Origin: Alphaproteobacteria bacterium
GTDB lineage: Bacteria; Pseudomonadota; Alphaproteobacteria; GM7ARS4; G965262615
Assembly (NCBI GenBank): GCA_965262615.1
Contig: OZ253545.1
Location: 1,280,001-1,344,000 of the forward strand
Direction: 5' to 3'
DNA length: 64,000 nucleotides
The notes under the pieces were generated by a model, which was not told where the DNA came from, ran no database searches, and saw nothing but the letters and a program-made list of their open reading frames with translations. Both the position numbers and the translations under genes were made by a program. Positions 1,331 through 57,985 of the stretch are shown one piece after another; the first letter of the stretch is position 1; the number at the start of each line of letters is the position of its first letter.

Positions 1331-4300
1331 CCGTTTGTCAGCGTCATTGTGCCACCATTGACCGTGACGGTGTCATTGCCGCCGCCAAGAGTGATGCGAC
1401 CCGTGGCATTGCCGCCGTTCATGGTGACTGTCACATTACCTGCAAAATCTGAGTTAATAATCTCGCTCGCCGTGACCGTGCCCGATGTCAAGTTGATGGT
1501 GGCGGTGTCAGCAGACGCTCCCCCCGTCAAAGACATCGCCGCGCCCGCCACATTAATTGTTCCCGTGTTACTGATGGTCACCGCTTCGGTCGCCGTCCCC
1601 GCCGACACCTGTATGCCATGTGCCGCCGTGCCAGAACCCGTAAGATTAATTGTTCCAGAATTTGTGATGCTCACTGTTCCCGAGCCAGCATGATTGATAA
1701 AAATACCCTGATGACTCGTGCCACAATTGGTGGTGCAAGCAGAAGCAAAACCAATTTGACTTCCACTATTATTGGTCACATTCACATTTCCTGTGCCTGC
1801 TGAAATCGCCTCAATGCCCCGTAGTCCATTGTTGTAGGGTGTTCCAGAAAACACCAGATTGCCGCCATTGGTGATGGTCACGCCCGCCGCCGACTTCACA
1901 TACAGAGCCGCTTTGTTTGTCCCCCGCACCTGAATATCACGCTTGGTGGCAGGAGCGGTCTGATTATTGACCGTCATACTGCCCGTCACCCGAGAATCCG
2001 TCACCGTGCCATCCAGCTCAATGCCATGACCCGTGCCCGCCGTGTTCACTGTCGCCGCCAAAGACTCCGTTGCCGAGCCAAGATTGACCGTCAAATCGCC
2101 CGTAAAAACACCGCTTGATAATGAACTGATTTTTCTAAAAATATCATCCAAATCAAAGCCACCCACAAACTCAAAACTGCTGGCACTGCCACCACTGCAG
2201 GTGATGGCACTGCCCACCAACCGACAGTTTAATGCCTCACCAATCGTCCCCCACGCCAACTGCAACTGACCCCCTGTGGCGCGCGATAAGGTGAAATCAC
2301 CGTCATACACCGTGCCGTCACGACTCCGCACGACCAGACGGCGAGCCAACTCCGAGAAAGTCAGAGTGGATTGCAAAACAATCGCCGATGCATCAATCAA
2401 GGTAAAAGCCGAGCGACTTCCAGAATCATAGCCCGCAGGAAGAAACAACTCAAGGATGGGAGCATCTCGGTCATTGCTGCCATTGAAAGTCACCGTGCCG
2501 GATATATCCACCTTGCCAAAAAGACTATCCAGATACAAACGCAGCGTGCTGTTCGCCGCCATGGTGAAAGTCTCCAAGCCGGTGATGCTGATATAACGTG
2601 ACACCTGTGTGCTGCTGCCAATCGCCATGATGCCGCGATTGGTGATGGAATCCGTGCCGCTACCAAAAGACGAATTGTAATTAATTGTCCAACTGCCGTT
2701 CGCAAAAACCGACACAGATTCATTGCCCGTTCCTCCCATGATGCCACCCGTCACAACGGCATAAGAGCCAATATTCACGGTGCTGTTGCCACCAAACTGC
2801 TGACTCCAATAGGCAACCAACGCCGAGGTACGAGAACCATTGTTGAAACTAAGAGTCGCGGTTTTACCTGTTCCCCCCACCACATTGATGGCAATATCAC
2901 GAGCCTCAATAATGCCCGTATTGTCAATGCTCACACTGGCAGTGGCACTTGATGATGGCAGTTCCGCAAGAATCCCCACCATGCCCACAGCATTGACGGT
3001 ATTGCTCACCCGAATGACACCCGCATTGACAATATCAATGTCCCCCGTGCCGATATGACTCGCCGCAATGCCGCGATGATTTGTCCCACAGTTTGCAGTG
3101 CAAGCAGCAGAAAAGCCAATGGTGGTGGCAAAATTGTTGGTGACGGTCAGATTGCCCGTCCCCGTCGCTATGGCATAGATGCCATACAACGATGAGGCGT
3201 ACCGATTATTATTGGTGGCAAACTGCACATTCGCTCCATTGACAACCGTCACACCACTGCGTCCCTTCACATACAACCCCGCCTGACCGCGATGGCTTAC
3301 CTGCACGGTGCGCTTTGTCCCGGTGGTCTGATGATTGACCGCCAGACTGCCGGTCACCCGTGAGCCTTCCCGCGCCCCATCAATGCGCACACCGTGTCCC
3401 GTGCCATCCGAGTTGATGGTGGTGTCGGTCACATTATTAATGGTGACGGTCAGATTGCCCGTGTGAACACCGTCTTGCAAAGAGGTGATGTCTTGAAACA
3501 AACGCCGAGCATTGATGCCCGAATTGAGCTCGCTGGCATTGCCGCCCGTGCAGGTGAGGGTGGTGCTGGCAAGATTGCAACTCATGGTGGATGCCGTATT
3601 ATTGACCACCGCCATATTGCTCCAGCGCATCGTCAAAGCGGTGGGAATGGAATTGGTGGTTGTCACACCCAGTTCAATAAAACCCACATATTCGGTGCTA
3701 CCGTCTGATGAAAACAGACGCACCTGAGATGCCAAGTCCGCCAAATCAAAAACGCTATTGGGAACAAGAGCGGCGGCACTCAGAAGGGTGAAATAGTTTT
3801 GATCGCTCATGCTATATCCAGACGGCAGATACACATGCAATGCGGTGGGGTCTTGTCCCACCGCCGCATTGACATTCACCCGCCCCGACAGAGTCATGGC
3901 GGTGTCAAAGACACTGGCGGTGCGACTCAGATAAAGTCCCATGGTGGTATTGGCATTGACGGTGAATGTCTCCAAACCGGTCACGGTGACTCCCTTTGAG
4001 CCATTGCTGGCATCCCCCACAATCAGCGTGCCACCACTGAGTGTCATGCTATCTGTTCCACCGCCAAATGCCGATATTCCATTGGCAAGAGTGAGCGTTC
4101 CGCCATTCACCGTCACGGTGTCATTACCACTGCCAAGAGTGATGCGACCCGTGGCACTGCCGCCGTTCATGGTCATGGTGATGTTGCCCGCAAAGTCCGA
4201 ATTGATGAGCTCATTCGCCGTGACCGTGCCAGATGTCAATCTAATGGTGGCGGCGGTGCTGGATGTCCCGCCCGTCAGAGCGATCGCCGCACCACTGCCC

Positions 4301-54338: not shown

Positions 54339-54445
54339 AGCGTGCCAAAAACAATTTGATGGCATCATCATAACCGTGGGCTACCGTTGATGCTCAAGGG
54401 GCGAATGCCAAAATGAATTGTGCCACAAACGATCTGATGGCATCA
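54284..54445. repeat. Imperfect ~79-bp tandem duplication at the convergent cobU/comEC ends
   Basis: 'ctaccg..tgctcaaggggcgaatgccaaaat' and 'tgatggcatca' each occur twice, about 78-79 nt apart. Confidence 0.88.
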
Positions 54446-56471
54446 CCTTTACGCGCCAGCTCTCACCATCACGCCACACAGAATGACTGCCGTGTGTTCG
54501 CAAGGCTTTGTTGTCAATCACATGGGCGGCACACGCTCCATGAGGCGCGCCGCCTGTCACCATGACAATAATATCACTGTGGCGACACTCCTCGCGCCAT
54601 GCCTCAGGGCGATGAATAAACGCAATAATACGCGTGTCGTGCCAGATGCATGCGTCACGATCGCAACGCAAGGTATCATCGCGCGCCATTAATTGTTCTG
54701 AAGTCATCAGGCGCGCCGCGAGAGCCTTCTGCCATGATGCCATGCGAAAGTCATCGTGCACCTCACTCATGGGAATCATGACATTGCCCGTCTGTGTCTG
54801 ATTCACAATGACGGCACTGCCATCGTCCGCCACCAGCAACACGGGCGGCGTTGTGTCAAACATCATGACCACCGACACCGCCATCACGGCAAATCCCCAT
54901 CGTCTGTGATGATGCCAAAAACAAAGCCAAAACAATCCCATGCTCCACAGCAGCAACGCCATCACTGGAAAACTGCCCACGCTCACCACCGAGCCACGCC
55001 AGCCATAGACATCATCGGCAATGACAATGAGCCACTCAATTCCCTTGCCCATCATCCACAAAAACGGCGCATCCCACTGCAATGGCATGAACAACACCGC
55101 CAGCAAGCCACTGGGCATAATCCAAAACGCCGTCAGAGGCACAGCCAGCAAATTGGCAAACACGCCGTACAAAGGCACAACATGAAAGTGATAGGCCACA
55201 AAGGGTGTCGTCACCAAGCCGGCAATCACGCTGGAGAGTGCCACCGCCTGCATATAGCGCAACCACACCACACGGCGATACCACGGCAGTTCTTCATCGT
55301 TCCATGATGTTTGCTTCACGATGTGATGAAAAAACGCCACCAGCGCAATCACCGCAATGAACGACATTTGAAATCCGCTTGATAAAACCCGTTCGGGCGA
55401 CATCACCATCAATGCCACCGCCGCCCACGCCACCATGGCAAGAGTATAGACACGCCGCGCCATCATGACTCCCACAAAGAACAAAAACACCATGATAAAG
55501 GCTCGCATGGTGGGCGTTGTGCCTCCTGTGAGCAACAGATAAAAGAATCCGCCGCCAATCGCCAGCAGTGCCGCCCATTTCTTGACGCTGTAATTGAGAA
55601 CCAATGGCGGCAACAAAGCAAAAAACAACCGCAACATGAAAAAGAGCGTGCCACTGATCAGTGCCATGTGGAGTCCCGATATGGCAAGCAAATGAGCCAA
55701 GCCGGAGCCGCGCATGGATTCCCACAGTTCATCCGGCAGGGCATGGCGATAGCCGGTCAGCAATGCCGATGCCACCAGTGAGGCGGGGGCGTCAATCACC
55801 TCTTTGATGCGAGCATCAATGGCGATGCGGAGCGGATTGATTCCTCTCTCATCCTCGCCGCGCTCCAAGACTTTGGCTTTTCCCAGTGCATAGCCATAAC
55901 CGCCGATGGCTTGAAACCACGCATGACGCACGCCATCAAAATCCCCCTGCCATGCGGGCGCACGAGGCGGATACAAATTCCCCATTGTTGCAATGAGCGA
56001 TCCCACAGGATAATCCTCCACCGTGCCGCGCACCGTCATGCGCACATTGGGCAGAGGCAAGCCATCGGGAGCGCGCACCTCATGCAGAGTGAGACGCACG
56101 CCGTTTTTGGATGGCTCTAATCGGTGCACGCGCGCCACCAATGGCTGAAATGACAATGGCTCTGTCAGCAGAAGTGACGATTCATGCCCATGACTGTGCA
56201 TCGCCGCCACGCCCATTCCCAACGCCACGCCTGATGTCAGCAGTGATCCAAACAACAGTGCCACCTGACCATGCCCTCCCCGTCCCCATCCCAGTGCTCC
56301 CAACAGCACCGCCACCAATAAAATCACCAAAGGCTCTTGCGGATATGCTGGCTCATGAGATAATGCAAAATAAGTCACAATGCCCAGCAGTGTGGCGACC
56401 GCAAACCACAACCCCCAATGAGCGCGCTCTTCGTCCAAATGATTCTCTATCGTCTCTATTAAATTCACCAT
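54381..56471 (-). CDS. comEC: ComEC/Rec2 competence membrane protein
   Basis: GLAHLLAISGLH, RAFIM, GFQMSF, ANLLAVP; many TM helices; start uncertain. Confidence 0.9.
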   Translation of the reverse strand: MVNLIETIENHLDEERAHWGLWFAVATLLGIVTYFALSHEPAYPQEPLVILLVAVLLGALGWGRGGHGQVALLFGSLLTSGVALGMGVAAMHSHGHESSLLLTEPLSFQPLVARVHRLEPSKNGVRLTLHEVRAPDGLPLPNVRMTVRGTVEDYPVGSLIATMGNLYPPRAPAWQGDFDGVRHAWFQAIGGYGYALGKAKVLERGEDERGINPLRIAIDARIKEVIDAPASLVASALLTGYRHALPDELWESMRGSGLAHLLAISGLHMALISGTLFFMLRLFFALLPPLVLNYSVKKWAALLAIGGGFFYLLLTGGTTPTMRAFIMVFLFFVGVMMARRVYTLAMVAWAAVALMVMSPERVLSSGFQMSFIAVIALVAFFHHIVKQTSWNDEELPWYRRVVWLRYMQAVALSSVIAGLVTTPFVAYHFHVVPLYGVFANLLAVPLTAFWIMPSGLLAVLFMPLQWDAPFLWMMGKGIEWLIVIADDVYGWRGSVVSVGSFPVMALLLWSMGLFWLCFWHHHRRWGFAVMAVSVVMMFDTTPPVLLVADDGSAVIVNQTQTGNVMIPMSEVHDDFRMASWQKALAARLMTSEQLMARDDTLRCDRDACIWHDTRIIAFIHRPEAWREECRHSDIIVMVTGGAPHGACAAHVIDNKALRTHGSHSVWRDGESWRVKVMPSDRLWHNSFWHSPLEHQR

Positions 56472-57585
56472 GACTGTTATCACTCGTTTTGCTCCTTCAC
56501 CCACAGGCATGCTGCATATCGGCAGTGTGCGCACCGCCTATTATAACTGGCTGCATGCGCGCCGTCATAATGGCAAGATGCTGCTGCGCATTGAGGATAC
56601 CGACCGCCAACGCTCCACACAACAAGCCATCAATGCAATCCTTGATGGACTCAATTGGCTTGAGCTGCATCATGATGAAGAGGTGGTCTATCAATCGGCG
56701 CGTGTCGCTCGTCATGAAGAAGTCGCGCGCCAATTGCTCAAAGAAGGCAAAGCCTATCACTGCTACGCCAACCAAGCTCAAATAGAAGAGATGCGAAAAC
56801 GCAGTGACGGCAAGGTTCATATTTTTAATCGCATGGTGCGGGAACACGCAAAGCCCACCAGTGACAAACCAACCCTGCGGCTTGCCATGCCGTCCGATGG
56901 CACAACCACCATTGATGACCTCATTCAGGGAAGGGTCACCGTTGCCAATGACACCATGGATGACATGGTGTTGCAACGCAGTGATGGCTCACCCACCTAC
57001 ATGCTGGCGGTGGTGGTGGATGACCACGACATGGGCATCACCGATGTTATTCGCGGCGATGACCATCTCACCAACGCCTTTCGTCAATGGCAGCTCAGCA
57101 CGGCACTGGGATGGACTGCGCCGCGCATGGCTCACATGCCATTGCTGCACGGCAATGACGGCAAGAAGCTGTCAAAGCGTCATGGGGCATTGGCGGTGCA
57201 AGAGTGGCGAGACATGGGATACCTGCCAGACGCTCTGCTCAATTATCTGCTCCGACTGGGCTGGTCGCACGGCGATGATGAAATCATCACCAAAGAACAG
57301 GCGGTGCAGTGGTTTGATGTGAAGAATGTGGGGCGCGCCGCGGCGCGCTTTGATGCAAAAAAACTCAATCACATCAACAGCAATTACTTGCGCGATATGG
57401 ACGATGATTTTCTCACGCAAAAGCTATTGGAATTTGATTCAAGCCTCACACACACATTACAACGCATGAACAAAACGCCGAATGATTTTGCATCACTCAT
57501 GCCAGACTTTAAGGGTCGTGTGCAAACTTTGGCGGAATTGCGCGACATCGCGGCTCATTACTTGCGATGGCATCTCCCAACTTGA
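56470..57585 (+). CDS. gltX: Glutamate--tRNA ligase, N-terminal 371 aa (catalytic part)
   Basis: TRFAPSPTG.LHIG, LRIEDTD, IRGDDH, KLSKR; ends before the distal anticodon-binding domain. Confidence 0.9.
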   Translation: MTVITRFAPSPTGMLHIGSVRTAYYNWLHARRHNGKMLLRIEDTDRQRSTQQAINAILDGLNWLELHHDEEVVYQSARVARHEEVARQLLKEGKAYHCYANQAQIEEMRKRSDGKVHIFNRMVREHAKPTSDKPTLRLAMPSDGTTTIDDLIQGRVTVANDTMDDMVLQRSDGSPTYMLAVVVDDHDMGITDVIRGDDHLTNAFRQWQLSTALGWTAPRMAHMPLLHGNDGKKLSKRHGALAVQEWRDMGYLPDALLNYLLRLGWSHGDDEIITKEQAVQWFDVKNVGRAAARFDAKKLNHINSNYLRDMDDDFLTQKLLEFDSSLTHTLQRMNKTPNDFASLMPDFKGRVQTLAELRDIAAHYLRWHLPT

Positions 57586-57610
57586 CATTATGGTCGTTTT
57601 GTCCTACTTT
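57582..57610 (+). promoter_or_regulatory. Putative sigma70 promoter TTGACA-N17-TACTTT overlapping the gltX stop
   Basis: Perfect -35 (57582-57587), 17-nt spacer, -10 at 57605-57610; GGAGG at 57632-57636 precedes ATG 57643. Confidence 0.55.
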
Positions 57611-57642
57611 TTACTCGTCAACAACAAAGTTGGAGGGTAGCA

Positions 57643-57963
57643 ATGGATGTGATGGTATCAGAAGTCTCTGGTTATGAACAGGGTGCGCTGTTGCAAGTGC
57701 AGCCCCATGTGCAAGACCTGAGCGATATGATCGCCAAAATGGAAGCCATTGATGAATGGAAAAAAGACACCATTGGCGACACCCTCAAGCAGCGAGCAAA
57801 AAGCTGTGACCAGCCCCTTAAAACCACCATGACTCTGTGTCGTGTGGCTTTGTTGGGACGCACTGAGTCACCGCCCGTCTTCGGCTTGATGGAATTTCTT
57901 GGCAAGAAAGAAACCCTTGCCCGTTTGCGTCACCTTGCAACACAGCTTGCCTCATCACCTTGA
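57643..57963 (+). CDS. gltX: Glutamate--tRNA ligase C-terminal anticodon-binding domain as a separate ORF
   Basis: W.....  and CRVALLGRTESPPVFGLMEFLGKKETLARL match the GluRS C-terminus (RxALxGxxxSPxxFxxxxxLGxxExLxRL); same frame as the N-terminal ORF; own RBS. Confidence 0.82.
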   Translation: MDVMVSEVSGYEQGALLQVQPHVQDLSDMIAKMEAIDEWKKDTIGDTLKQRAKSCDQPLKTTMTLCRVALLGRTESPPVFGLMEFLGKKETLARLRHLATQLASSP

Positions 57964-57985
57964 ATTGTGCTAGATTGCGGCATCC

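Follow-up and report, generated by a model that had tools for sequence, protein, structure and literature searches.

The gene gltX, which encodes glutamyl-tRNA synthetase (GluRS), is present as two adjacent open reading frames (ORFs) in the 64,000-nucleotide (nt) stretch of DNA analysed here (the window; positions 1,280,001 to 1,344,000 of contig OZ253545.1, assembly GCA_965262615.1, Alphaproteobacteria bacterium). Descriptions of GluRS present it as a class Ib synthetase made of one chain and normally monomeric. The reading preferred here, with a probability of about 0.72 on comparison of the sequences, is that the chain was split in an ancestor of this bacterium and that its two parts are now translated separately and reassemble non-covalently, giving a working two-polypeptide GluRS1 in place of one chain. 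The two ORFs and the stop between them are:

56470..57585, + strand: gltX-alpha (ORF1), candidate large subunit, 371 amino acids (aa), ending in TGA (ORF list and translation)
57583..57585, + strand: TGA stop closing gltX-alpha, next base C (sequence and translation)
57643..57963, + strand: gltX-beta (ORF2), candidate small subunit, 106 aa, the last helical subdomain of the anticodon-binding region (PF19269 and TIGR00464)

ORF1 contains the class I catalytic domain (Pfam PF00749, residues 3-300, E = 1.6e-88), and its translation has HIGS at residues 16-19 (a HIGH-type motif) and KLSKR at residues 233-237 (KMSKS-type). Alone it matches positions 2-367 of the 470 positions of the NCBIfam gltX profile TIGR00464 with 419.5 bits, the cut-off being 289.95. 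It reaches about 70 residues past the PF00749 domain and carries the first part of the anticodon-binding region. ORF2 matches positions 67-140 of the 141 of Pfam PF19269 (E = 8.2e-18) and positions 389-465 of TIGR00464. By these matches, the cut is placed between positions 367 and 389 of TIGR00464, that is, within the anticodon-binding region. In the T. thermophilus enzyme the boundary between domains 4 and 5 (IV and V) presumably lies near residue 370. According to excerpts of two published descriptions, the anticodon-binding region corresponds to T. thermophilus residues 323-468 (PMC3927822) and consists of two helical subdomains, IV and V (PMC12088422). Positions 30-91 of the small-ORF profile align to residues 398-464 of chain 1j09, although weakly (E = 0.34). 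The original prediction, made from the sequence before this analysis, had assigned a separate anticodon-binding piece to ORF2; what stands of it is the last subdomain and not the whole region, since PF19269 positions 67-140 are confined to ORF2 and neither chain holds a complete helical anticodon-binding domain.

The same prediction had described the two ORFs as lying in one frame, separated by one TGA and 19 sense codons, with a read-through product of 497 codons, and the sequence, the ORF list and the translation agree with this. The spacer of 57 nt is free of stops, and the ATG of ORF2 is the earliest ATG, GTG or TTG past the TGA of ORF1. Around the junction the following features are found:

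57583..57675, + strand: sequence additional to that of unsplit GluRS, limits approximate (TGA, 57-nt spacer and codons 1-11 of ORF2)
57582..57610, + strand: promoter-like TTGACA-N17-TACTTT (consensus match only)
57632..57636, + strand: putative Shine-Dalgarno sequence GGAGG, 6 nt before the ORF2 ATG (sequence; the 16S tail has CCTCC)

The extra sequence amounts to approximately 26-30 codons, in keeping with the predicted excess of about 25-30 codons in this linker, and has 40% G+C, compared with 51-53% in ORF1 and ORF2. The estimate comes from an alignment with 12 unsplit orthologues of 458-477 aa (12 of 19 extracted loci, the mis-extracted L009-L011, L016, L017, L021 and L022 being left out) and from the best solved homologue, 5h4v, which aligns to residues 3-374 and 424-493 and leaves about 26 residues extra. 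No second copy of the extra sequence was found in the 1.54-Mb genome (blastn-short, E up to 10). An origin of the insert from a repeat or mobile element was considered and rejected, because the sequence is single-copy and the repeat search gave only a 7-nt inverted pair.

It had been proposed that the TGA be verified in reads. Logan contigs of runs X1 (record 6) and X3 (record 13) are identical to the window across the TGA, with 0 differences over 57312-57916 and 57350-57916, respectively; these two runs may be the source sample. In strains diverged by about 5-6% (X5 and X6, a marine run and a sponge metagenome run), contigs cross the junction and keep the extra sequence, with no large gap, and the contig of a related strain has an extra, frame-preserving CAA in the CAACAACAA run. 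A second strain is represented by a 595-nt contig of run X1 (record 5), in which the last part of ORF1 adjoins the greater part of ORF2. This contig has 173 letters for 168 between anchors lying in both coding frames, a net difference of +5 nt. The two frames therefore differ in that strain, and read-through cannot be the conserved route. The contig also has a 15-nt deletion, which matches the 5-residue gap of P0003 and P0004, two stand-alone relatives of ORF2. Its 19 listed differences include 5 amino-acid changes; all five match the ORF1 relative P0007, and none match P0005 or P0006. As far as these contigs go, the break is neither an error nor a fresh nonsense mutation. As a separate observation, a 17-kb contig of X5 (record 22, aligned to 56935-58097) has P0007-type differences in 57342-57515 and is window-like across the junction and ORF2, a pattern that suggests recombination between strains within gltX.

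The split is shared by the nearest relatives. The four closest to ORF1, P0005-P0008, are 96, 92, 86 and 81% identical to it, measure 371, 371, 370 and 387 aa, and carry PF00749 only, with no anticodon domain. Their ends cluster at one alignment position, give or take a few residues, in a loop that reads R-P-L-x-L in unsplit enzymes, and the two closest, P0005 and P0006, which are gene calls of other assemblies, end at the same residue as ORF1. The fifth relative, P0009 (62%), is unsplit, with 468 aa and both domains. Stand-alone relatives of ORF2 are P0003 (101 aa, 69% identical) and P0004 (107 aa, 63%), which begin at the same start with a homologous M-D-x-M/V-V. Altogether, no fewer than four ORF1 clusters and three ORF2 clusters show the split with both ORFs open, and both pieces are open in all the relatives found, i.e. 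retained in diverged strains, as expected of a split synthetase. Since close relatives of ORF1 and ORF2 share the split and distant ones are unsplit, the split is, on the sequences compared, a derived feature of a small clade and not the accident of a single genome. The original preference for a two-subunit GluRS over a plain nonsense mutation is borne out by this recurrence, with both ORFs open and identities of 81-96% for ORF1 and 63-69% for ORF2. One member of the clade, P0008, displays a further peculiarity: an in-frame insertion of about 30 residues in the catalytic domain after window residue ~128, so that two insertions of similar size (~90 nt) occur within one gene of the split clade. 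Relative to the usual N-terminus, the start called for P0008 is 13 residues further in.

Outside this clade, searches gave no further example. In a first scan, none of 40 other genomes had a stop inside the best match, and 34 strong rows from 32 genomes lay in open frames of 459-650 aa. In a class-wide scan of 401 genomes, 269 had a match (150 matches listed, 125 not), and no further clean split was seen among the 150 matches listed, the unsplit rows of which include G043, from a genome marked unpublished, on which no other statement here depends. Among the matches listed, short open frames occur only in G000, G336 and G348, and the matches of G035, G128 and G385 lie within ~800 nt of a contig start. 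The gltX of G336 (L032, contig C12, ~1959-3482, - strand; genome 67% complete) is distributed over overlapping ORFs of different frames, and is either a frameshifted pseudogene or an assembly error. G348 (L033, contig C9) has a full gltX at 2877-4295 (- strand) and, ~850 nt downstream, a 134-aa ORF (1627-2031, - strand), of which the last ~85 residues and the C-terminus of that gltX are almost the same. Here the subdomain at issue has recently undergone partial duplication. A search with ORF2 among representative proteins gave 118 matches at E up to 0.001, of which P0003 alone is close and the rest are mostly of 70-250 aa; 16 of the 118 were inspected, and as fragments at contig ends are indistinguishable from stand-alone genes, these matches have no bearing on other splits. 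Fused relatives of ORF2 were not found among 90 candidates in a search of longer proteins, which is weak evidence, and a scan of JGI metagenomes with the ORF2 alignment gave 538 pattern matches and no confirmed one.

Constraint on the two halves was assessed from the strain differences and the family alignment. Of the 32 strain differences listed in ORF1, 20 affect third codon positions (p = 7e-4), and the 19 listed for the second strain entail no more than 5 amino-acid changes. For ORF2 the comparison is with 25 unsplit GluRS, among which the pairs with N-terminal parts 80-90% identical (11 of 300 pairs) have C-terminal parts 57-82% identical (mean 71.5%). The small-ORF identities of 63-71% fall within this range, and the relative rate of ORF2 is therefore normal. 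Alignment A3 misaligns the N-terminus of ORF2, and only its columns from 405 on were used; alignment A1 was used for the complex described below. According to excerpts of PMC12088422, the pocket residues of domain V are Leu427, Ala431, a conserved Arg, Leu447 and Phe448. By motif register, ORF2 keeps Leu, Arg and Phe at Leu427, Arg435 (placed by offset) and Phe448, and has a conservative Val at Leu447 and Met at Ala431. The solved GluRS 6brl also has M-P-L before the pocket Arg, and the ORF2 variant is therefore not unprecedented. ORF1 keeps the nearly invariant Arg350, which we infer to be the equivalent of the C36-binding Arg358. Indirectly, then, neither half looks neutral. The original prediction had coupled an intact paralogue with neutral evolution of both halves as the signs of decay; an intact paralogue does exist, and the neutral evolution did not appear.

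In a structural model the two chains were predicted to associate. The alpha/beta complex scored 0.67 (best control 0.15), passing a mark that 58 of 80 solved complexes and 2 of 110 mismatched pairs attain. At least 89% of contacts are common to the runs, and the partner has a predicted local distance difference test score (pLDDT) of 84 or more. In the predicted interface, residues 335-371 of alpha would meet beta at residues 7-10, 41 and 70-97. Because the halves belong to a fold that has been solved many times as one chain, this pass may stem from the model's memory of such structures.

The genome, one contig of 1.54 Mb, contains a second GluRS gene, as the original prediction had suggested looking for: an intact paralogue of 453 aa (~C1:193215-194576), 34% identical to ORF1. 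No glnS for glutaminyl-tRNA synthetase (GlnRS) scored above the cut-off in the genome (best 60.7 bits vs 425.8), gatB is present, and there is one tRNA-Glu(UUC) and one tRNA-Gln(UUG). The paralogue has the motif HAGN, the split gene HIGS, and the nearest unsplit relatives HIGG. In PMC3927822, alphaproteobacterial GluRS1 is given as H-phi-G-G and GluRS2 as H-phi-G-N, and X = S falls within the range of H-phi-G-X; 45 of 69 alphaproteobacterial genomes have two GluRS, no GlnRS and gatCAB (Table 1 of that paper); and tRNA(Glu) is the substrate of GluRS1, and tRNA(Gln) that of GluRS2, in the two species where this was tested, H. pylori and A. ferrooxidans. By motif, the split gene fits the GluRS1 type and the paralogue the GluRS2 type. 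On this analogy, the split gene would be the tRNA(Glu) charger of the cell and indispensable.

These observations may be combined as follows. An ancestral gltX of the GluRS1 type would have acquired approximately 90 nt in the loop that joins the two helical anticodon-binding subdomains, and would thereby have been split. Translation of alpha (371 aa, the catalytic core and the first anticodon subdomain) would terminate at the TGA, and beta (106 aa, the last subdomain) would be initiated independently at its own strong Shine-Dalgarno sequence and ATG, most simply on the same mRNA. The two chains would then reassociate non-covalently into a heterodimeric GluRS that aminoacylates tRNA. A more elaborate version goes further, in that the insertion, with its stop, promoter-like site, ribosome-binding site and start, would have made an obligate alpha/beta synthetase. 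Anticodon reading would be divided between the C36-binding Arg on alpha and the C34/U35-binding Arg on beta, and tRNA(Glu)/tRNA(Gln) selectivity or the enzyme level could be tuned through the supply of beta, e.g. from an internal promoter. This version is doubtful.

The predicted GGAGG-N6-ATG before ORF2 was found as described. GGAGG at a distance of 4-9 nt precedes only 0.5% of all ATGs genome-wide, and among 1003 crude long ORFs GGAGG is present before only 35; the ribosome-binding site of ORF2 is therefore unusual in this genome. GGAGG is missing at the start of gltX itself and at the start of the adjacent citrate synthase gene (57986). The predicted promoter is there as letters, with TTGACA at 57582-57587 (containing the TGA) and TACTTT at 57605-57610. 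The promoter scanner did not call this site in the window, because its -10 element agrees with TATAAT in just 3 of 6 letters. The 64-kb window has 3 matches to the pattern TTGACA-N16-18-TANNNT where 0.81 would be expected, and 6 of 100 shuffles reach 3. Likewise, the complementary pairs named in the original prediction are present, CCAACTT (57577-57583) with AAGTTGG (57627-57633) and TTGAC (57582-57586) with GTCAA (57617-57621), but the predicted hairpin is at chance level: the fold of 57565-57655 has -20.8 kcal/mol (z = -0.38, 63 of 200 shuffles as good), and its minimum-energy form uses another local stem, 57611-57640, over the GGAGG. No Rfam family matched the spacer or insert at E up to 1. 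A hairpin or riboswitch in the spacer was rejected on these two results.

Several other explanations of the locus were considered. Alpha alone may be a working, C-terminally truncated GluRS, with the small ORF in another role (e.g. a free tRNA-binding factor) or dispensable. ORF1 by itself exceeds the gltX cut-off and keeps Arg350, and ORF2 is altered at 15 of 30 strongly conserved family columns, all of which would suit such a truncation; an isolated catalytic domain of the E. coli enzyme also reportedly retains some activity. However, ORF2 is open, adjoins ORF1 and starts alike in strains of as little as 63% identity, changes at the rate of the C-terminal domains of intact GluRS, and keeps the pocket Arg and Phe together with the surface predicted to pack against alpha, so that this explanation appears unlikely. 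Decay, in which a nonsense mutation killed gltX1, the paralogue took over and the pieces are relics, is quite unlikely. The intact paralogue, the small genome and the low identity of ORF2 to the family (24-33%, from alignment A3 with its N-terminal part misaligned) are what decay would predict; the same split with both frames open in several clusters, the 81-96% identity of ORF1 among split strains, its third-position excess and intact catalytic motifs, and the normal rate of ORF2 are not.

Read-through of a leaky TGA-C into one chain, the 19 codons being a linker and termination tuning the amount, would account for the shared frame, for the stop-free 57-nt spacer and for the extra CAA of the related contig, which keeps the frame. 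In E. coli, termination at TGA is weak when the next base is C. However, a shared frame (1 in 3) together with 19 stop-free codons (~0.4) has a chance of ~0.13 by our own arithmetic, which is not significant, and ORF2 has a strong Shine-Dalgarno sequence directly before its first ATG. The second-strain contig, with its net +5 nt, puts the frames out of register, which weakens the regulated read-through that the original prediction had offered as its other possibility. Recoding as selenocysteine or by a programmed UGA was looked for, and there is no tRNA-Sec in the genome (ARAGORN) and no Rfam recoding element, and the fold has z = -0.38. TGA as a sense codon was rejected, as tRNA-Trp has the anticodon CCA, tRNA-Sec is missing and TGA closes 629 of 1003 long ORFs, more than either other stop. 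As the main route, read-through is judged unlikely from the sequence, and if anything slightly more so than decay. The probability of a sequencing or assembly artefact is negligible, considering that the X1 and X3 contig sets are identical, that the X5 and X6 strains carry the extra sequence, and that the gene calls of other assemblies end alike.

The two-polypeptide reading itself has a number of points to contend with. The frame offset of the second strain is known from a single contig, at depth 13.9, and, save for this one contig, the pairing of P0007 and P0008 with P0003 and P0004 is an assumption. The contigs of X5 and X6 show the extra sequence, and the differences listed for them do not cover the TGA codon itself. 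In ORF2, 4 of 6 listed strain differences are at third positions (p = 0.10, not significant), and within-clade substitutions avoid the family-conserved columns to an extent that is not significant either (p = 0.06; 46 invariant and 31 variable columns). The 15 departures of ORF2 from the family residue include the motif AQPLR, of which A-Q-P is M-T/P-L in ORF2. Ten of the 15 departed columns are invariant within the split clade, which looks as if change had come in a burst close to the split and constraint had then returned. The specificity of GluRS2 in Alphaproteobacteria is assigned by analogy with H. pylori and A. ferrooxidans (PMC3927822), and the split gene could be dispensable if both tRNAs were charged by the paralogue.

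Compared with canonical bacterial GluRS (TIGR00464; PF00749 plus PF19269; structures 5h4v, 7k86 and 1j09), the split gene has the same domains in the same order, HIGH-type and KMSKS-type motifs, and the usual gltX neighbour, a citrate synthase gene (57986-59347), adjoining it. It differs in its two polypeptides, in the 26-30 or so extra codons at the junction, in HIGS for the HIGG of its nearest unsplit relatives, and in M-T/P-L for the family A-Q-P before the pocket Arg. Naturally split synthetases reportedly include the alpha/beta leucyl-tRNA synthetase of Aquifex aeolicus and the alanyl-tRNA synthetase of Nanoarchaeum equitans. As in these, one ancestral synthetase chain is found in two genes, whose products would here have to reassemble; in contrast to these, the enzyme is another one, the cut is within the anticodon-binding region, and the genes are adjacent, 57 nt apart. 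GluQRS (YadB) is also a GluRS-like catalytic chain without the usual C-terminus. However, ORF1 is below all five listed GluQRS cut-offs (e.g. TIGR03838, 250.9 vs 276.7; NF004314, 244.7 vs 256), exceeds that of gltX, and runs ~70 residues past PF00749, with the missing piece next door. With gatB, two GluRS and no detected GlnRS, the genome is of the same type as H. pylori and A. ferrooxidans, although in the pairs described there both GluRS1 and GluRS2 are single chains.

A full-text literature search found no report of a split GluRS. Split synthetases being already known for other amino acids, an apparently new split GluRS is moderately surprising. A lineage that has long kept its GluRS in two pieces would amount to a natural fragment-complementation experiment, in which the last helical subdomain is detachable at the loop after the first anticodon subdomain. 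It may offer a system for probing the part of that subdomain in anticodon reading and in tRNA(Glu)/tRNA(Gln) discrimination in a transamidation-dependent organism. Annotation pipelines are likely to flag the present locus as a pseudogene, and an essential function may thus be mis-scored in small marine or sponge-associated genomes.

Some minor observations concern the neighbouring genes and the rest of the genome. Upstream, a membrane-protein ORF (54381-56534, - strand), taken from its furthest GTG, overlaps the start of gltX (56470, + strand) by 65 nt. Downstream, a hisG ORF (59308-60030, + strand; TIGR00070, E = 1.6e-51), taken from its first TTG, shares 40 nt with the end of the citrate synthase gene, and its true start is probably further in. 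ARAGORN found 44 tRNAs and one transfer-messenger RNA (tmRNA) in the genome. The latter is a permuted two-piece tmRNA at 125475-125777, and an 85-nt tRNA-Asp call is at 375268-375352. Outside the window, three 90-nt tRNA-Ser(CGA) genes occur within about 13 kb (G000:C1:1427219-1440388).

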